Assembly (NCBI GenBank): GCA_965205865.1
Contig: CBDBHR010000030.1
Coordinates: forward strand, 96,001 to 160,000
Source: a bacterium
Lineage (GTDB): Bacteria > SAR324 > NAC60-12
Direction of reading: 5' to 3'
Length of the DNA: 64,000 nucleotides
Part shown: in pieces, positions 45,452 to 54,808 of the stretch
Position numbering within the stretch: the first letter of the stretch is position 1
Layout: each line of letters starts with the position of its first letter
Made by a program: the position numbers and the translations under genes
The notes under the pieces: generated by a model
Database searches by the model: none
Told to the model about the DNA's origin: nothing
The model's input: the letters and a program-made list of their open reading frames with translations, nothing else

Positions 45452-46063
45452 TTAAGTACCATGTTTTTTAGAAATGTTCATTTTTTTCTTATTGAGTGAC
45501 TTTCGGAGTATCATCCTCGCGCGAAACAATTTGCTTTTCACGGTTCCGACAGGAATATCCTGCATATTTGCTACCTCGTCGTAAGACAATCCTTCCATGG
45601 AAACCGCGACCAGAACCTCTTTCAGATCCGGGTCAAGTTGATCTATCGCTTTTTTTAAAAGGGAAAGCCGCTGTTTTTTTTCGGCGTATTCCAAGGGAGT
45701 GTCTTCTGTGGATTGATAGTTTTCCAACATCTGGTCCGAAACCATCTTGGAACGCCGTTTTCCAGCTCGGTTGATGTCATTGATGACTTTATTGCGCGCG
45801 ATCCCCAACAGCCACGTCAAAAACTTGGCGTTGCCCTGAAAGGTTTCCAGATTTTGAAAGGCGGCGATGAATGTTTCCTGCGCCAGATCTTCTGCTTGGA
45901 CCGGATCATCGATGAACTTGAGAAGAAAGCGAAACACCTGATTCCGATAGCGAGTGACCAGAATATCAAACTGATGGCGATCGCCCTTTAAAATGTCCTC
46001 GATCAGTGTCTGCTCTCCTGGCACCAGCGCCGATTTTTGCTGGGACTTTAAAGTAATGAGCAT
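45452..46063 (-). CDS. ECF RNA polymerase sigma factor (RpoE-like); start may be further upstream (46150)
   Basis: AEDLAQETF, F.TWL..IARN, EGLSY.EVA....P.GTVKS.LFRAR. Confidence 0.92.
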   Translation of the reverse strand: MLITLKSQQKSALVPGEQTLIEDILKGDRHQFDILVTRYRNQVFRFLLKFIDDPVQAEDLAQETFIAAFQNLETFQGNAKFLTWLLGIARNKVINDINRAGKRRSKMVSDQMLENYQSTEDTPLEYAEKKQRLSLLKKAIDQLDPDLKEVLVAVSMEGLSYDEVANMQDIPVGTVKSKLFRARMILRKSLNKKKMNISKKHGT

Positions 46064-46254
46064 ACAGACAACGGATGAGGAAATTGGTTTATTGTAAAAG
46101 ACTGTTTTCGAGTCCACGGTAGGATAGCTGTCAAATGCCATTTTGTCCATAATTTCTTTGTGGGAGAGGCATTGATTCCCGTGGGAAGTGAGCAAATTAA
46201 ACAGGCTTGATCCGATTACGAATCTCTCGGTTTTCATTAACGAACCAAGAAGCG

Positions 46255-48827
46255 TTATTTATCATTCAACGTACTCTTCAGGGCATCTGTAAATTCTTTT
46301 TCGTTCTCGGAATTATAGAATGGCATGCCGATCAAACGGAACTCCTTTTCTCCAAGAGTCAGCAGCTTGCAGTTAAACTCGGCAGTGATTTCTTTCAAGA
46401 AGGTTTCCTTCCACCGGTCATGTTCTTTCAGATGTTTGCCTTTGGGTTCAATGAAAAGTTGAAAAATAGAAAACTCGCCATCCTTCCGGCGCAGAAACAG
46501 GACAAAATCCGGTTGAAAGGCTTGCCCATCGTAAAAGTTGTAGATCGTGAAATGCCTCTCGTTGCGAATCAGATAGATTTCGTCGTACTCTTCCCGCATT
46601 TGTTGCATTTGCCTGTCCAGCATTCTCACAAAGGCCTTTTCTTCGCTGGTTCCGTAAACCGTGTTGAATGCAAACCAGTCTTTCTCTGAGACGAAATGCT
46701 TGAACTGCGCATCGTCCGCGGCGTGAGGGTTGTTGGCGTCGAACTTGAGGAGCTTGTCCTTGAAGACTGCCTTTACCCAGTGACGCTGAAAATCATTCGT
46801 CCCCTCGTATTCTGTAATTTGCTGGCGGATTTCGCTCTCGATTCGACTCAATAATCCCGTCAAGGCAGCAAATTTTTCGCGCGGTTCTTCTGCCAGGCGA
46901 TAGACATTACCCTGGAAGGTGATTTCAACCCACCCAGATAATCTTTGGAGACAATGAATTCGCGCATGGACTTCAGATTGGGAAAGTAGCGTTTGAGAGA
47001 CGCGAACGTAAAGAACGGATTGCGGGCAAGGGCAGTTTGCACGACGTTGCGCTCGACGTCTGCCACTTTCATATCATGGCGGTTTTCGTCTTTCACTACC
47101 ACGTTTTTGTCTTCGCTCTCGAGCACGGCCGTTGCCCCACCGTGACCTGTGGCGATGGTGTGGACATAGTTTCTGCGCGTCACGCCAAGATCCTGAAAAG
47201 ATCGGATACCATCGTAATTTTTCGCACGGCGATTGTTGCACCAGATCACGCCAGTTTTGTAGAAATCGCTTTGTTTGAACGGTTCTTTGAGTTTGAGTTC
47301 ACGAATCACTTCCCGTTCATCCATTACTCCTTCTTTTATCAGTGCTGCGCGAATTTCGGAAATGTAGTGTGAATCGTTGATACTGTGATAATGCAACTCT
47401 TCGATGACACGCATTTCGTTTTGCAGGTCTCCATCGAATTTACGGCGGAAACGGTCGTCACTCGCGCGCAAAACAAAGGGAAAATAACGCGCGCCACGCC
47501 CGATGAGTTGCGCTTCGGAGATCGTCGTCTTGCCAATTTTATTCTTCCCTGAATCCCGACCCTCGTAACAGCGTACGATATCGAACAGGTTCAGCACGTC
47601 CCAGCCTTCATTGAGTTTCTGCACGGCGAAAACGGCGCGGATGCGGTTGTCCCGGTCTTCAAGGGTATTGACCAGAATCTGGTGGTTTTCCTTCTCCTTT
47701 TCTTCGTTGACCGAGAGGCAATGGTCTTCCCGAAATTCCCGTTTCACACGCTCCACCAACTGCGCGTCGCCGATATGGTTGTCGTCAAAGAATTGAAACG
47801 CCCTCTGCACCAATGGGATGTCCGACTTGCGGATGTGAGCAACGTCTTCCGTGCTCAGCTCATCAACAAGGCGATGAAAATTGGCTTTGTTCTCTTTGGA
47901 TTGGTCAATCGTGCGCTGGGCCTTGAACAAAATAACGGGTTTGAGGTTGGTCTGATATTTTGCCGCCACCTCCTGTTTGTACTGGCTGAGAAGCAAGGCT
48001 TGCAGAATACGCTTGTTCAGGTCGAAGTCCGATTGCACGATGACGACGTCTTTTGAAAAACCGTCGTTGCGGAATTGGAGCAAGTCATAGCGAATGATGA
48101 CCTTGTTCCGATATTTTTCCACCATCGCGGGTGTTTCGTAGTCGTGCGTTGCGGTGAATTCCAACAGGAGGTTGTCCTCGTTCTGTCCGAAAATACGCTC
48201 GACGGTGTCCTCCCAACTCCCAAACATTTCTTTTTGGGACTTGGTCGTTACGTTGATGTGATGGGCTTCGTCGGCAATCAGCGCGATGCGGCGCTTGCGG
48301 AAGTCTGCAAAAGTGATGGCGTTTTCCTTCTCGGTTTTCAGATCAGAGTGTAGTTTTTGAATCGTTGTGAAACAGATGTTGATGTCGTCCTTGTTGACGC
48401 CTTCAAAGTGATCGACGGGCGAAATGCTAACACGGTGGTTATCGATGTGAATCTCTCGATGGAACAGGTATTTGATGCTGGCGGGGTTGAAAAAGTTTTC
48501 CTTTGTCTTTTCAATGATGTTGGTGGAATTGACGAAGAAGAGAAAATTGCGATAACCCTTTGCGTACAGGTAGAGAATCAACCCGGCCATAATCAGGGTC
48601 TTGCCGCTGCCGGTCGCCATGTTGAAGAGAAAATGCAGTGGCGACTCCTTACCCGGAAAGTCCTTTTCGAGACAATGAAAGAAGCGGGTAAAGGCGTCTT
48701 TCTGATAGGGGCGCAGTTCGAACTTGGGGTTCAGATTGTCAGTGAGATAGTTGGGAATTATTGTTTTTAATCCGCCGAATTTAGAAAAGGAATCTAGTTC
48801 TTCGAATAAAAACTTATCGGCCATCAC
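46255..48827 (-). pseudogene. res: Type III restriction endonuclease Res, split by a 1-bp frameshift at ~46927
   Basis: MATGSGKT, IADEAHH, TAT, EGWDV, QLIGRGAR; nuclease motif FQPDF...FIEPKG lies in the downstream ORF; adding one base gives ...YLGGLEITFQG...AALTGLL. Confidence 0.88.
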
Positions 48828-50817
48828 ATGTCTCTATGGAGTCTCCATAAAACACCCGGTTCAACGCTTTGTCTTCTTCGTTGACGGCAAAATCCTCATC
48901 CTCGATTTCCGAAAGGTTGACGTAGAGTTGGTTCTTATTCAGCAGTTCCGCGAGCAGCTTCTTTTGTTTGTTCAACCCGTTTTCTTCTTTGCCGATTTCA
49001 ATAAAATCATGGACCGTATCTTCTGGCAGTTTCGGGTTCACATACCAATTCAAAAAGGAATTTTCAGCGATGTCTCGCCAGAGGGACACAAGCTCTTCGG
49101 ATGATTGGGCGGCTTGGATTTTGTCCATGTAAGATTCATTGTATTGCATCAGTTCGCAATAGATAAAATCGCCGCCACCTTGCCAGTTGACGGATTTGGA
49201 GATGCCCCCGGTGTCGTATACAATATCCTTGAACAGCGTTTCGTCATTTTTAGCTCTGTTCCCGACGACTTTTTTTAGCCTTTCTAGCGTGATGGTCTCC
49301 ACATAATCCATCTGTTCAACCATCATCCATTGGCGGTTCATCTTGTGGGCAACGGCGGAAGTGGTGGCGGAACCTGCGAAGAAATCAAGAACGATGTCGC
49401 TTTCGTTGGAACCCATGTGAATGATGCGTTGAAGAAGACGTTCTGGTTTAGGAGATGAAAAGGGGTTTTCTGAGAACATACTTTTGATTTCATCTTTGGC
49501 CTCATGATTATGTCCCACCTCTTTATATCCCCAAATAGTAACTGGAGTAAGACCACCCATATCTCGTAAAAAAGTCTTTCTCTGAGGGACTTGATTTTTA
49601 CCTTCTCCTAACCATATCTCATCATTTGCTTCCATTCTTTTCATACTATCATCATTGAATCTTCGGTATGTTCCTGGAGGTGGCGACCAAGTCGAACCGT
49701 TTGCAAACGTATAGGATTTTATACTCGTACCACTTTTGGCATGTAGTGGGGTTGCTTTCCAAGGACCTTTAGGATGGTTATCTGGATTAGAGTAAGCATC
49801 ATCAACAACAGAAGTTCTAAGAAGTTTATTCAACTTCCACTTCTCTTTTTTCTTAACATACAGAATGATATGGTCATGGTTGTCCGAAAAGTATTTTGCA
49901 TCATTAGCTCTGGTATATTTTTTCTGCCAGACTACATTTGCCACAAAATTCTCCCTGCCAAAAACGTCATCACATAACACTTTCAAATAGTGTGCTTCGT
50001 CGTCATCGATATTGATCCAGATTGTCCCATCGTCCCGCAACAATTCCCTCGCCACTTCCAGCCGATTTTTCATAAACGTCAGCCAACTCGAATGGTTGAA
50101 GCTGTCGTTGTAACCGAACGAATCATTTCCCGTATTGTAGGGCGGATCAATATAAATCAGCTTCACCTTGCCCCGGAATTGATTTTTCAGCGTGTGCAAG
50201 GCCAGTAAATTGTTTCCCTTGATGATCAGATTTTCCCGTATCACACCGTTTTCGTCCCGCTTGATTTCCCTAACCTTTTCTTCGCCTTCGACTGTGTGAC
50301 GTTTCCAGTTTGTCAACACTTTCGGGTCAAACATGCGGTCAATCTCGTCATGCGCCAGCACCTCATTGAAGAAAATCTCCTTGCGTTTTTCCTCTTCTTT
50401 CGTCTGTCCACCCTCCAGCACGCAGTCTTTATAGGGCCAGACGAGGGACACCTCACCCCGTTCTCGTAGGAATTTACCGTCGATGTTCAAACCGATCTTA
50501 TTGCGAAAACGGGTGTATGAACTGGCGAGGAAATTTTTGTCGGAGATGTAGTCGATGAAGGTATTGAAATTGAAGACCCAGTGCCCTTCGATCTCATCAA
50601 AGAACTTTGCCTTGACGTCGATTTCACGGAGCAGCAGCCTGACTAGTTCGTGATCGATCTTCCATGCCCGGTCGATCACCGCCGCCTTGACCAATTCACC
50701 CTCCTCGTCAACGAAGCGAGGGTCAGTTTTAAGCAGTTCGATCAGTTTTTGGTAGAAGATGTTTTGCATGTTGTCGTCCTTATCACTTGTTTTTGCCAGT
50801 TCAGCATTTCGTGTCAC
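48814..50817 (-). CDS. mod: Type III R-M adenine methyltransferase Mod
   Basis: IYIDPPYNTG (motif IV) precedes DFFAGSATT (motif I); overlaps res. Confidence 0.93.
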   Translation of the reverse strand: MTRNAELAKTSDKDDNMQNIFYQKLIELLKTDPRFVDEEGELVKAAVIDRAWKIDHELVRLLLREIDVKAKFFDEIEGHWVFNFNTFIDYISDKNFLASSYTRFRNKIGLNIDGKFLRERGEVSLVWPYKDCVLEGGQTKEEEKRKEIFFNEVLAHDEIDRMFDPKVLTNWKRHTVEGEEKVREIKRDENGVIRENLIIKGNNLLALHTLKNQFRGKVKLIYIDPPYNTGNDSFGYNDSFNHSSWLTFMKNRLEVARELLRDDGTIWINIDDDEAHYLKVLCDDVFGRENFVANVVWQKKYTRANDAKYFSDNHDHIILYVKKKEKWKLNKLLRTSVVDDAYSNPDNHPKGPWKATPLHAKSGTSIKSYTFANGSTWSPPPGTYRRFNDDSMKRMEANDEIWLGEGKNQVPQRKTFLRDMGGLTPVTIWGYKEVGHNHEAKDEIKSMFSENPFSSPKPERLLQRIIHMGSNESDIVLDFFAGSATTSAVAHKMNRQWMMVEQMDYVETITLERLKKVVGNRAKNDETLFKDIVYDTGGISKSVNWQGGGDFIYCELMQYNESYMDKIQAAQSSEELVSLWRDIAENSFLNWYVNPKLPEDTVHDFIEIGKEENGLNKQKKLLAELLNKNQLYVNLSEIEDEDFAVNEEDKALNRVFYGDSIETCDGR

Positions 50818-50878
50818 TTGCCTATAAGTGCGACGTGCATTTTAGAGAAATATGCGAGTGATTCCGGCAGTGGGCGGA

Positions 50879-51487
50879 TCAATTGACGATCGAGTGAATG
50901 GTTTCACAAAGGTTTTGAATATATTCTACGGCCTGCACGGAGTCATTGCGGAAAATTGGCCAACGGATTCCAATTCCGGAATAGCTCGGATCCAAGTCGG
51001 CCTCATGCGTAATTTTGTTTCGACGTTCCACTATAAGTTGAAGCCGGGTTTTTACGTCTTGCACCGTCAGGCCGAGTTGCGAAGCAACAGACGGCCACAA
51101 CTCAGACGAGGAAAAGAGCCGTACCGCATCCGCTATCTTGCCTGGGTGTTGGAATGCCAAGTACCCATGTTTCTCACGGATTTCCGTCTCAAACCAGTTA
51201 TTCGTGCTTGATCCTGCGAGTCCTGTCATAGCTGCACCAATAGTCACTTGAAAGCGCTGGAATGCGTCGGTCGGAAGGTGTTTCCCATGGTATACTTCTA
51301 ACATTCCAAAGCGCACTATTTCGTGGATGTAGTGGTCAAGAGAACTAACGGCCAATACAATTTGCGTGCGTAAAAGATCGCTCGCATCCAAGACGGGGGT
51401 GGTCAATTGATCGAGTGCCTCATACAATCCACCAATGGCGCGTACTCGTTCAATATTTTCACGAAATTGTTGAATCGTTGCGAGCAT
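50879..51487 (-). CDS. Stand-alone HEPN-domain protein (predicted RNase)
   Basis: Helical protein with DLLR..IV..VS.LDHY.HE and an Rx4H motif RNKITH. Confidence 0.82.
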   Translation of the reverse strand: MLATIQQFRENIERVRAIGGLYEALDQLTTPVLDASDLLRTQIVLAVSSLDHYIHEIVRFGMLEVYHGKHLPTDAFQRFQVTIGAAMTGLAGSSTNNWFETEIREKHGYLAFQHPGKIADAVRLFSSSELWPSVASQLGLTVQDVKTRLQLIVERRNKITHEADLDPSYSGIGIRWPIFRNDSVQAVEYIQNLCETIHSIVN

Positions 51488-52541
51488 GATCGATGAGCTT
51501 TATTATTTTATCCGCACCGTCGGCGTACAAATCCCGAAACCGATGCATGGATTCCCTAGTTGTTTCAAGCACTACCCCTGTTTGTTCAAGTTGCTCGTCA
51601 TTTAAGCCAAAAACCGGCGCTTGGTGTTTTTGTGAAAGAGCAATCAGACTATTGAAGTCTGACATCTGAATGAGCGGTTGTCCTATTTGCAAGTTAACCT
51701 CTTCGTATACCCGACCTGGAAGTAACATATTATTTTCATTTAAAACAGGAATGAGCTTTGTCTTTATTCCTTTCTCTATTTCCTTGACCCACTCCTGGAA
51801 TGCGGCAGAAGGAAAATTTCCCTCTCGCAATCGATACTTCTGAACAATCGTTCCGAGAAACTTGGGGTTCTTATCAGGGAAAGGGTAACTTGCGTTCTTT
51901 AAAACAGGTAATGATTGTGCTTGTTTTGCCCAAGCTGACCACTTGGGCAACACGGATGCAAGGCTATTCGTTGCCATTACTGAGAAATAGTCCAGAGTCA
52001 TTGGTACGATAAAATAGTCACTCGTCATTATCAAATTTTGGTTTATCGGACTCAAGCTCGGATTCATATCCACCAGAATGAAATCAGCGTTGTACTTTTC
52101 AGCAGTCAGAGAAAAGAGGTGGTGCAGGGCTCCGGGCAAATTCTGGAGAGTCACCAGTGAGCCGGAAAGTTCCTGAGCAATACCCAAGATGACTTCGTAT
52201 TCAGCGAGACCAATGTGACCTGGTAAAAGGTGCATGTCAGGCTGGCCGTTGATTGATTCACAGACCACAGGTTCAATAGCCACTGGTCGAGATTCAAAAG
52301 CTGGTGAAAGACCGTCCCGGATGTTTCGCACTTCATCCGAAACATAAATTGATTTAAAATCCTCATTAAAATCCTCGAATCCCTTAAATCCGAGGACCAT
52401 GCCCGTGAGGTTACACTGGGGGTCGCAGTCGGCGATGATAACCCTCTTCCCCTTGTTTGCCAGCATCCAGCCGAGGTTGAAGGTGGTTGTTGTCTTGCCG
52501 ACACCACCCTTATGATTGAAAAGTGAAATTTGTTTCACCAT
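51459..52541 (-). CDS. Long ParA/Soj-like ATPase
   Basis: GGAG RBS; NHKGGVGKTT deviant Walker A, D.DPQCNLT, ILVDMNPS; ~360 aa; overlaps the HEPN gene by 29 bp. Confidence 0.9.
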   Translation of the reverse strand: MVKQISLFNHKGGVGKTTTTFNLGWMLANKGKRVIIADCDPQCNLTGMVLGFKGFEDFNEDFKSIYVSDEVRNIRDGLSPAFESRPVAIEPVVCESINGQPDMHLLPGHIGLAEYEVILGIAQELSGSLVTLQNLPGALHHLFSLTAEKYNADFILVDMNPSLSPINQNLIMTSDYFIVPMTLDYFSVMATNSLASVLPKWSAWAKQAQSLPVLKNASYPFPDKNPKFLGTIVQKYRLREGNFPSAAFQEWVKEIEKGIKTKLIPVLNENNMLLPGRVYEEVNLQIGQPLIQMSDFNSLIALSQKHQAPVFGLNDEQLEQTGVVLETTRESMHRFRDLYADGADKIIKLIDHARNDSTIS

Positions 52542-52664
52542 TTGATCAACTCCTTTCAAGTTACTTTAACAACTTGATGGTTAAAAATGTATGCATCGTA
52601 ATTGTGGGGGATGTGTTTTGAGCAAGTTAATCAGTTTCTCATTGAGTTTTATACATGTTGGGTC

Positions 52665-53575
52665 CTATTTCATCTCCTCATCAGCTCTCGCCAATAAAAG
52701 AATGTTTGAGGCAGTCAAGTGAAGCGCGTAGGCGGTTAAGGATTCCGGAACAGAGACTATTCCGGTTCCCTGTCCGTGCCCCGACTTTTGATTACGAATC
52801 GTGGGAACGCCAGCCTCCAACGTGCTCCTCAGACCCGTGAAATGCGACTCCATGAAGACTGGAATCAACTTGTACTGGTATACAATGTCAATCAGATACC
52901 TGGCGGAATCTTTATTACCGTATTTCCATCCTCTTTTTTTACAAATCGTTTTGAGACAACTCTCGAATGCTTTGAGGCAGTCGTTCAGGCACTCTTTATA
53001 CTTCTCGCTCGATAGTGCCCGTGCGCGCTTAAAAATTCCGTATTCGCTCCTTTGTACATCGGTGCGGAAAGCACACTCAATGCGGGCTTTATCACTTCAG
53101 AGTGGATCAACTGGGAATCCACCCTGATGATTTGGCCGGATTCGTACTGGAACCCCACGCCTTGTTCATGGAACCGGAAATTCAATTCATCAATCGCATT
53201 GTCAAATATTAGTCTATCTCTTTCTTGGAGGTTGTCATTTAGAAATTGGAATGAAAGTTCAATGACATCAATTACTTCTTCGACTTCCTTTGTTTGCAGA
53301 AAGAAGTTGGCGACTGACTCGAAGTCTGAATCATGGGGTTTGCCAAGCGTGAAGACACCGTATTCACGGCACAAGGCTTTGTGGATGAACACAAATTCGT
53401 GAGCATTGCTGTCGGGACCCCAATTGGGATTATAGTAGAGTTCCCCGAAAGCATCCTCCAAGATCTGGACAACTTGAACCCGTAATTGGTTGGGAATGGA
53501 CTCGTATTGGTACACGTCGGGAACTTCACCCCGACTTCGTTTCTGGCGTTTTGAGAAAAGGTCAGTGACCGGCAT
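52665..53575 (-). pseudogene. AbiJ-like abortive infection protein with C-terminal HEPN, 1-bp frameshift at ~53007
   Basis: FSKRQK...DVYQY..IP..LRVQ N-terminus; after the shift KYKECLNDCLKAFES...GVPTIRNQKSGHGQG (Rx5H). Confidence 0.78.
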
Positions 53576-53668
53576 ATTACACTCTTCCCCCGCGATTTTT
53601 ATATCGTTGTACTTGAATCTAGGTATGAAAGCCTTGACCTGTATTTATACCACTTCCCCCTCCTCATT

Positions 53669-54808
53669 TCAAGGCATTGGGGATCGGAAACGGCCGGTGC
53701 AGATTTGCTGGAACAGATTTTGAAAGAGGCAGCGCGCTTCTTTTGCATTGTATTTGAATTGCAGATCGAGATCCGCCATTCGAGTCACGATTTGTTCCAA
53801 TTCTTGCAGAGTGAAGGAGCGTGCTTGAGCCATCAAGCGTTTGCCCAGGAAGGGATGGATCTTGAGTTTGGGCAGGATCACAGAGGGGGGGAGATCTTGC
53901 TGTTGGAAGTAATGGATGCTCAATAACCTGCGAAATTGCTGGGAGACCAGGACAAACAAACCGACATGCCCCGAGGGGGTTTCCAGTAAGATTTGATCCA
54001 GTGTTTCCAGAGCCCCCACCAGATCTTTATGAGAGAGTGAGTGGGTGATGCGAAAAATAGAGAAGGACTTGGCGCCCCGCACGTGTTCGAGCAGTGTTTC
54101 CTCATTCAAGAGTAGCGCATTTTTGCGAGGATGATCCCCTTCGACAGACTGTAAAGACAACAGGGAGAGTTTTTCTAATTCCTGGTCCAGGATGTTGAGA
54201 TCAATGCCAAGCAATTCTATGAGCAATCGGGCAAGCTGTGGCGTTATCGAGATTTGTTTCTGCCGACCTCGGGCGATGATCCAGGCAATGGGTTTATCGT
54301 CGTCATAGGCCATAAATTTTTGGATACTGCCCCGGAGCTTTATGGTCTTCAGCAGAGGGGAACTGAGATCCTGCTCGCGCGTGGCCACCGCAGTCAGGAT
54401 GAAAAAACAGGAATCCGGAGGTGTGGTAAGGTACTTCAGCAGTGTATGAAACAAACGGTTGCCGGACAGCGTGGTCGGCTGAGTGATGACGGAATCCACA
54501 ACCTCGCGTTGGCGTTTCGCCGGACTGTTTTGTTTTCCCCGAGGCTGTTTCAGTTTTTCCAAATGATCCAAACGAATTATCTTGCGATCCGACAAAAAAG
54601 GCAGCGTGTCACAACTCAAGCAAAAGTCGTCCACTTTTTCATTTGCGCCTTCACTGTCGTCCTTGAGCAGTTCCGTGACGTCAAACCGTTGCAATGTGAA
54701 TTCCACATCGCGGTCCTCCAGAAGGGTCTGAATCAGCGTGGCCGCAGATTCGTCGATCTGCAATTGCTGATTGCCATAAAGCAATTGAATTGGTTTTGGA
54801 GTCGTCAT
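53669..54808 (-). CDS. holA: DNA polymerase III delta subunit
   Basis: LLYG, TLPFLSDRKII, L.QELEKL.L, IF.IT, KIHPF, LD...K. Confidence 0.85.
   Translation of the reverse strand: MTTPKPIQLLYGNQQLQIDESAATLIQTLLEDRDVEFTLQRFDVTELLKDDSEGANEKVDDFCLSCDTLPFLSDRKIIRLDHLEKLKQPRGKQNSPAKRQREVVDSVITQPTTLSGNRLFHTLLKYLTTPPDSCFFILTAVATREQDLSSPLLKTIKLRGSIQKFMAYDDDKPIAWIIARGRQKQISITPQLARLLIELLGIDLNILDQELEKLSLLSLQSVEGDHPRKNALLLNEETLLEHVRGAKSFSIFRITHSLSHKDLVGALETLDQILLETPSGHVGLFVLVSQQFRRLLSIHYFQQQDLPPSVILPKLKIHPFLGKRLMAQARSFTLQELEQIVTRMADLDLQFKYNAKEARCLFQNLFQQICTGRFRSPMP

Follow-up and report, generated by a model that had tools for sequence, protein, structure and literature searches.

Does a ParA-like ATPase gene that overlaps the gene for a small HEPN protein form a functional unit with it, and, if so, what might such a unit do? 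The question is raised by a locus on the minus strand of a 64,000-nucleotide (nt) stretch of DNA from a SAR324 bacterium (lineage NAC60-12; assembly GCA_965205865.1, contig CBDBHR010000030.1, positions 96,001 to 160,000). The whole stretch is referred to here as the window, and positions are given in its coordinates. A preliminary description, made from the sequence alone, had proposed that the two genes (52541..50879) are an undescribed anti-phage module in which a ribonuclease (RNase) is gated by a separately encoded nucleoside triphosphatase (NTPase), possibly as a fail-safe for the type III restriction-modification (R-M) enzyme encoded downstream. According to our analysis, the ATPase and the HEPN protein constitute a strict, self-contained two-gene unit. 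This unit is, on balance, probably an ATPase-controlled HEPN RNase module of a toxin/controller-like type, serving abortive infection or the maintenance of a genetic element.

The ATPase gene is best read as running on the minus strand from the ATG at 52541 to 51459, which gives a protein of 360 amino acids (aa). This ATG, preceded by the Shine-Dalgarno sequence AAAGGAG, appears a likelier start than the TTG that opens the longest open reading frame (ORF) in the minus-strand ORF list (51459..52559, 366 aa). The HEPN ORF (51487..50879, minus strand, 202 aa) begins before the ATPase gene ends, the ATPase stop codon (51461..51459) lying inside it. The resulting 29-nt overlap (51459..51487) implies a single operon and makes translational coupling probable. 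The anatomy given in the preliminary description is thus borne out: it had named a ParA/Soj-type ATPase of about 360 aa with a KGGVGKT motif, longer than the usual partitioning ParA, and a 29-bp overlap with a 202-aa HEPN protein whose RNKITH motif is intact.

The evidence that the two genes belong together comes from their relatives. Scanning the HEPN alignment A1 against one genome per species yielded 65 related loci, which span at least seven phyla (Latescibacterota, Chloroflexota, Poribacteria, Desulfobacterota, Planctomycetota, Acidobacteriota and Pseudomonadota). A ParA-like gene was found by tblastn directly upstream of the HEPN gene, on the same strand, in 63 of the 65; the two loci without a visible ATPase (L041 and L063) are cut by contig ends. 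The pairing, whose conservation the preliminary description had singled out for checking, is therefore far beyond chance. The junctions are equally constrained. Of 59 loci, 47 have the ATPase stop within the HEPN ORF and another 10 have no more than 35 nt between the two genes, which leaves two loose junctions, in L004 (379 nt) and in L012 (855 nt, holding an insertion sequence (IS) gene). No third gene accompanies the pair: all-against-all clustering of 938 ORFs from the loci and the window yielded no more than two families shared by all of them, and the family next in size was present in 7 loci. Moreover, the two proteins diverge in step, the pairwise identities of ATPase and HEPN being correlated (Spearman 0.69, 54 pairs of proteins), with a mean pairwise identity that is higher for the ATPase (0.654) than for HEPN (0.530). 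It may be added that the gene lodged between ATPase and HEPN in L012 (L012:7139-7995) encodes a transposase of the IS4/5 family (DUF4096), and that both flanking genes are still intact there.

Another line of evidence is the asymmetric decay of the pair. Both genes are intact in 53 of the 65 loci. An intact ATPase accompanies a broken HEPN gene in five (L025, L055, L057, L061 and L064; four frameshifts and one truncation), whereas a broken ATPase with an intact HEPN gene occurs in none of the 65. The rest comprise four loci whose ATPase gene runs off the contig, L041 at an edge, L063 with a HEPN gene truncated N-terminally at an edge, and L065, where both genes are degraded. If breaks were proportional to gene length, the probability of all five falling in the shorter HEPN gene would be P = 0.006. 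Decay confined to HEPN is the pattern expected of an addictive toxin/controller pair, because prior loss of the upstream gene would be lethal. Prediction of a complex of ATPase and HEPN gave a score of 0.02 against a mark of 0.32, a result that counts neither for nor against binding.

The upstream protein is a P-loop ATPase of the ParA/MinD type (SIMIBI class), as indicated both by its motifs and by its Soj/ParA-like fold. It matches the Pfam models AAA_31 (6.2e-29) and CbiA (2.8e-15), both above the cut-offs, and carries the deviant Walker A motif N9-H-KGGVGKT17 (KGGVGKT at residues 11-17), a DxD-P-Q motif at residues 38-42 within DCDPQCN, and the Walker B residue D158. Residues N9, K11, V14, K16, D38, D40, Q42 and D158 are invariant in alignment A2 (26 sequences). 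The AlphaFold2 (AF2) model has a mean predicted local distance difference test score (pLDDT) of 69, residues 41-132 being poorly modelled; searched against the PDB with Foldseek, it retrieved 3pg5 (E 7.6e-11) and Soj 2bek (E 8.4e-10), with probability 1.00. The nearest solved structure is 3pg5, the uncharacterised 361-aa protein DIP2308 of Corynebacterium diphtheriae (profile E 2.2e-22), which is of the same length class and has the same VDCDPQCN motif, although the two align over ATPase residues 3-199 only. The relatives of the ATPase number thousands, with about 70% identity across phyla.

Compared with Soj (about 250 aa), the ATPase is longer through extra residues at about 45-132 and through a helical C-terminal extension at about 246-357. 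Mean column conservation is 0.625 in the extension (residues 251-360) versus 0.776 in the core (residues 1-250), and the extension, which holds many near-invariant positions, is far from hypervariable. The least conserved stretch of the protein is residues 341-360 (column conservation 0.45). A separate observation concerns cysteines: C39 and C43, both within DCDPQCN, and C94 are invariant (window 52400-52430, minus strand), while Soj-type ParA proteins presumably have no cysteines at the positions equivalent to C39 and C43. A metal or redox role of these residues is possible.

The downstream protein is a predicted RNase effector or toxin. It matches the Pfam model PF18735 (HEPN_RiboL-PSP; 5.7e-9, 36.6 bits versus a cut-off of 28.4) and contains the motif R155-R156-N-K-I-T-H161-E162, in which RNKITH at residues 156-161 represents the Rx4H signature; R155, R156, H161 and E162 are invariant in 23 HEPN sequences. 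The AF2 model consists of helices only (mean pLDDT 82.8); a Foldseek search with it retrieved HEPN toxins, AF_0298 and AbiF, all of them weakly (E 0.28-1.3; probability no higher than 0.90). Homologues are numerous: 446 were found through the word index, 119 of 120 among the matches listed carrying PF18735, and a profile search returned 1481 representative clusters at E <= 0.001, the best 150 of the 1481 being 117-315 aa long. The protein also matches phrog_13503, a family of unknown function, at 9.8e-35. At E <= 10 it matches PF18735 and, weakly, Apea, with no match to PF18737, which we take to be the Pfam model covering the MAE_18760 HEPN family. The nearest Atlas clusters are likewise RiboL-PSP-HEPN, with one cluster in which 11% of the members carry PF18737. 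The least conserved stretch is residues 81-100 (column conservation 0.40), where the homologue P0029 has a 22-residue insertion.

Phages and plasmids also carry the pair. It is present in the Pf-type inoviruses of Pseudomonas AY324828.1 and PV296014.1, 10-kb genomes without an R-M system, where a 343-aa ATPase gene overlaps the HEPN gene by 8 nt. In the Pf prophage record AY324828.1 (L066:2477-4028), found by tblastn with the HEPN protein, the ATPase gene bears the annotation 'Soj (ParA)-like putative regulatory protein'; the HEPN ORF behind it has no annotation, ends early (175 aa) and lies about 400 nt from the att site at the prophage end. In PV296014.1 (L069:2676-4308) the HEPN protein has 202 aa and the pair adjoins the integrase gene. 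Fourteen plasmid records match HEPN, 13 of them from Burkholderia (12 of those from B. glumae), and 9 of the 14 are typed as conjugative; in the one plasmid record that was examined, genes for an 'AAA family ATPase' and a 'HEPN domain-containing protein' are adjacent. All phage and plasmid HEPN copies tested match PF18735 (37.7-52.7 bits). The pair thus appears to move as a cassette among genomes, phages and plasmids. A more distant relative of the ATPase, full-length, with 35% identity and the same C-terminal signature, occurs in P22-like Salmonella phages, directly after the c2 repressor gene. This relative has no HEPN partner and is preceded by a DUF3024 gene (ST160, NC_014900.1, L068:2521-4074), whose product may be an alternative partner of this type of ATPase.

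We suggest the following mechanism for the pair. The HEPN protein would be a toxic RNase, probably a dimer pairing two Rx4H motifs, as in other HEPN enzymes. The ParA-like ATPase would act as its cognate, nucleotide-dependent regulator, presumably through direct contact, holding the HEPN protein in check in the resting cell and so neutralising it in the manner of an antitoxin. A change in the ATP, dimer or DNA-bound state of the ATPase, upon infection or upon loss of the module, would be the trigger that frees HEPN; the freed enzyme would cut RNA and growth would stop, with abortive infection or addiction as the outcome. From the preliminary description, the idea of a split, NTPase-gated RNase is retained insofar as NTPase and HEPN form an obligate unit, and co-occurrence, fixed gene order, junctions, co-divergence and the 5:0 decay ratio indicate that the ATPase probably restrains or gates HEPN.

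Several points weigh against this interpretation. The ATPase, with all of its catalytic residues conserved, should be more than a passive antitoxin, which makes a simple toxin-antitoxin (TA) picture incomplete; it is also better conserved than HEPN, which is unusual for antitoxins and would fit the ATPase as the main actor. Since relatives in P22-like phages have no HEPN neighbour, the ATPase can act with other partners or alone. The HEPN model resembles solved HEPN structures only weakly (E >= 0.28), and a HEPN profile compared with PDB sequences gave nothing significant (best E 0.2). No fused ATPase-HEPN protein or longer HEPN form was found among 1316 longer-protein candidates, although this absence is weak evidence. 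As the loci with a broken HEPN gene were assembled from metagenomes, some of the frameshifts may be assembly errors. Finally, the literature searched contained no experiment on the two-gene pair or on a close relative, in line with the suspicion voiced in the preliminary description that the pair might have been predicted computationally but not characterised.

Such predictions do exist, and the pair is a further case of a computationally described ParA-HEPN kind, not the undescribed system that it was first thought to be. Anantharaman et al. (2013; PMC3710099) predicted a ParA/Soj-HEPN dyad as a new TA system with the ATPase as antitoxin and proposed that the ATPase controls HEPN via a nucleotide-dependent change. 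The dyad resembles the pair in having an ATPase gene in the place of the antitoxin, ahead of a HEPN gene with a retained Rx4-6H motif. It appears to differ in the HEPN family, ParA/Soj being tied there to the MAE_18760 family, while the HEPN protein of the window matches PF18735; for the Ribo L-PSP-HEPN family the same text lists an 'operon with ParB', and one supplementary file of the article does not mention the family. More recently, a computational study by Li, Burroughs and Aravind (bioRxiv 10.64898/2026.10.19.760177, 22 Oct 2026) has described ParA-effector systems of two genes, whose effectors fall into seven kinds, HEPN included. According to this preprint, the systems have a predicted anti-phage or anti-plasmid role, ParA intercepting the invader's DNA and the effector serving as a back-up suicide device. 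The layout of one ParA gene and one gene for an enzymatic effector is matched by our pair (63 of 65 loci, no third gene). So are the markers given for PriB1/ConB1 (N opening the Walker A motif, V within it, Q two residues past DxD), which correspond to the invariant N9, V14 and Q42, in a comparison made at the level of motifs only. The rapidly evolving C-terminal extension of the ParA proteins in that model has no counterpart here, the extension of the window ATPase being well conserved instead.

The nearest experimentally tested relative of the pair is RemAIN of the Salmonella Gifsy-1 prophage, which, according to PMC13043305, consists of the ATPase RemA, the immunity protein RemI and the HEPN anticodon nuclease RemN. 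RemAIN, too, combines an ATPase and a HEPN nuclease in one phage-defence unit; it is set apart, by description, as a three-gene system with a separate immunity (HeH) protein, whereas the pair has no third conserved gene. The preprint mentions as characterised a Salmonella ParA-HeH subtype-4 system with a HEPN tRNA anticodon nuclease, and we infer that this system is RemAIN. HEPN-MNT systems share with the pair a small HEPN RNase toxin under an upstream nucleotide-using enzyme, and their toxins come closest to the HEPN model in structure, although the matches are weak (7bxo_D, 5yep_C and 6m6u_D). Their partner is, however, a minimal nucleotidyltransferase and their HEPN protein has about 130 aa, as opposed to a ParA-type ATPase and 202 aa in the pair. 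PrrC and RloC also couple an NTPase to a HEPN-type RNase in defence, and PrrC is linked to an R-M system. Both are single polypeptides with an ATPase of the ATP-binding cassette (ABC) type, PrrC lying inside a type I R-M locus, unlike the pair, with its two genes, ParA-type ATPase and lack of a consistent R-M link. A search by name, as suggested in the preliminary description, produced no full-length match to any system model of PADLOC-DB v2, and the HEPN protein had no match at E <= 0.01. The ATPase does match PDC-M28B; membership in PDC-M28 was rejected, since only 40-49 residues around the P-loop match.

The genes around the pair in the window lie outside the module. Transcription on the minus strand proceeds from an AbiJ-like ORF through ATPase, HEPN and mod to the two pieces of res. 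The upstream gene (53575..52665, minus strand) belongs, as the preliminary description had anticipated, to an Abi family (AbiJ_NTD4/STM4504), with the qualification that it is frameshifted. Its N-terminal part is a 196-aa ORF (53575..52985), while its C-terminal part, a DUF7014 domain with an RNQKSGH motif, lies in another frame (52994..52668, stop at 52665); the frameshift falls near 52995-53010. This gene is therefore either a pseudogene or the product of an assembly error. Downstream, 61 nt separate the HEPN stop at 50879 from the GTG of mod at 50817, in agreement with the earlier estimate of about 60 bp. The mod gene (50817..48814, minus strand) encodes a type III methyltransferase of 667 aa (PADLOC MTase_III, 4.3e-179). 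The res gene for the type III restriction enzyme was likewise identified, although in pieces: positions 26-638 and 721-862 of the PADLOC model REase_III are split over two minus-strand ORFs in different frames, 48827..46860 (655 aa) and 46863..46255 (202 aa). The pieces overlap by 4 nt (TTGA), just past an A5 run near 46875. Because the relative of res in L004 is a single ORF of 876 aa, with 65% and 53% identity to the two pieces, the window res is frameshifted or mis-assembled. A scan of 46000-54000 found no terminator-like site between the pair and mod on the minus strand. It found 14 promoter-like sites (9.6 +/- 3.5 expected) and 8 terminator-like sites (9.4 +/- 3.3 expected), numbers that are uninformative on operon limits. 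For the purposes of annotation, the region is best taken as a small defence island in decay, in which the AbiJ-like gene and res are frameshifted and the pair is intact.

The wider neighbourhoods were surveyed by comparing 332 ORFs that encode 100 aa or more and lie no further than 3 kb from the pair, in 62 loci (L034, L064 and L065 gave none), with a far control of 145 ORFs drawn at random from 181 at least 4.5 kb away (4.5-8 kb), from 51 loci. Categories were assigned by reading Pfam names, and near and far counts were compared by a one-sided Fisher test. R-M ORFs account for 9 of the 332 near ORFs and 5-6 of the 145 far ones (p = 0.77-0.87), so that local R-M enrichment around the pair was rejected by the far-zone control. 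The figures for TA ORFs are 10/332 and 0/145 (p = 0.026), for mobile-element ORFs 15/332 and 2/145 (p = 0.069), and for other defence-like ORFs 7/332 and 1/145 (p = 0.25). The enrichment near defence genes that the preliminary description had put forward as a check is therefore seen for TA genes and not for R-M genes. These counts place the pair in small TA/mobile hot spots and, more loosely, in variable regions. TA genes occur within 3 kb in 7 loci, and transposase, integrase or resolvase genes in 11. The other defence-like domains are those of L013 and L014 (AAA_21), L028 (HNH), L029 (LonB-like, YhcG), L053 (KAP NTPase) and L056 (SIR2_2). The remaining neighbours are housekeeping genes, such as the suf operon in three Latescibacterota and sulfatase genes in Poribacteria; most copies of the pair are chromosomal and lie among such genes. 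In the three Latescibacterota (L001, L012 and L044) the pair is inside or beside the suf operon (SufB/D, SufS), and an N6_N4 methylase gene and a TdeIII-type restriction gene are found about 5 kb from it. In one Syntrophus genome (L010:4779-6227) a gene for the RNA ligase RtcB lies about 700 nt upstream of the pair, which may be a coincidence.

How else might these observations be explained? In the model of Li et al., the ATPase is the primary effector, coating the DNA of an invading phage or plasmid via its C-terminal extension, with HEPN as a back-up suicide effector. Applied to the pair, this model differs from the HEPN-restraining mechanism mainly in which of the two proteins protects. It draws on the two-gene systems with HEPN described in the preprint, on the PriB1/ConB1 markers of the window ATPase, on the ATPase being the better conserved partner and surviving alone in 5 loci, and on the P22-like relatives that lack HEPN, their position after the c2 repressor gene being typical of a defence gene expressed by the lysogen. 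It relies, however, on fast-evolving C-terminal extensions, at odds with the value of 0.625 and the many near-invariant positions in residues 251-360. The DNA-binding residues, moreover, are not alignable in the window ATPase, where DNA binding is only predicted; the preprint is computational only; and the model, taken alone, leaves unexplained why the ATPase gene is never the first to be lost. We regard a leading role of the ATPase in the pair, the main rival of our own reading, as possible, though rather unlikely.

Two other explanations were considered. A guardian comparable to PrrC would monitor the adjoining type III R-M system and release the RNase when a phage inhibits restriction. The short distance to mod, with no terminator-like site in between, would suit such a function, and so would locus L004 (Poribacteria, L004:3576-11549), which has the closest ATPase (81% identity) and, beside the pair, an R-M system of the same type III lineage as the window's. 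The gene order differs there (res, ATPase, HEPN, mod), the N-terminus of mod being 75% identical to that of the window and mod itself being interrupted by an IS (HTH_Tnp_4 / DDE_Tnp_4), so that the linked type III systems are damaged in both places, in res here and in mod there. R-M domains lie within 3 kb of the pair in 7 of 62 loci (L004, L005, L006, L007, L017, L058 and L059), but these represent four kinds of system (type III, type ISP, Eco57I-like and Mrr), and the other 55 loci have none. Together with the lack of near enrichment and the inovirus genomes that carry the pair without any R-M system, this means that the pair has no specific tie to R-M systems; a guardian role is very unlikely, and the fail-safe function for the type III enzyme finds no support as a general property. 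Still less credible, to the point of being nearly negligible, is that the ATPase is a normal ParA for partition or positioning, whose small neighbour is unrelated to it. The Soj-like fold and the generic ParA matches, to phrog_164 ('ParA-like partition protein') and to NCBIfam NF041546 ParA_partition (E 9.2e-16), might suggest this. The latter match, however, reaches 58 bits against a cut-off of 180 and covers residues 11-49 only, the HEPN partner is constant in 63 of 65 loci, and most copies are chromosomal insertions among housekeeping genes. No parB accompanies the ATPase either, as had been noted at the outset: neither flanking gene in the window (AbiJ-like, mod) is parB according to Pfam, and a ParB domain is absent from all 332 neighbour ORFs of the 62 related loci.

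Beyond the mechanism in which the ATPase restrains HEPN, a bolder extension can be formulated, which we offer as a speculation and consider unlikely. Instead of a plain antitoxin, the ATPase might be a sensor switch powered by ATP, one that detects invasion, for example from foreign DNA or from a redox or metal cue received through the DCDPQCN cysteines, and licenses HEPN in response. The pair would then amount to a minimal immune system of two proteins, carried around by filamentous phages and plasmids, whose mechanism differs from those of HEPN-MNT, PrrC and RemAIN; in the lineage of the window and L004 it might also back up type III R-M.

HEPN RNases are common effectors of bacterial immunity, and the ways in which they are silenced and switched on are known for few of them. 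The pair is a compact (1.7 kb) and very widespread case whose controller is a ParA-type ATPase, a class best known for DNA segregation; an immune 'fulcrum' role for such proteins has been proposed only in the 2026 preprint. At its small size the pair lends itself to direct tests of HEPN toxicity and of its relief by the ATPase, as well as of nucleotide dependence and protection from phages. The value of the pair lies in its being untested, compact and widespread at once, and a result on it would be the first to ground the two-gene ParA-effector class in experiment.

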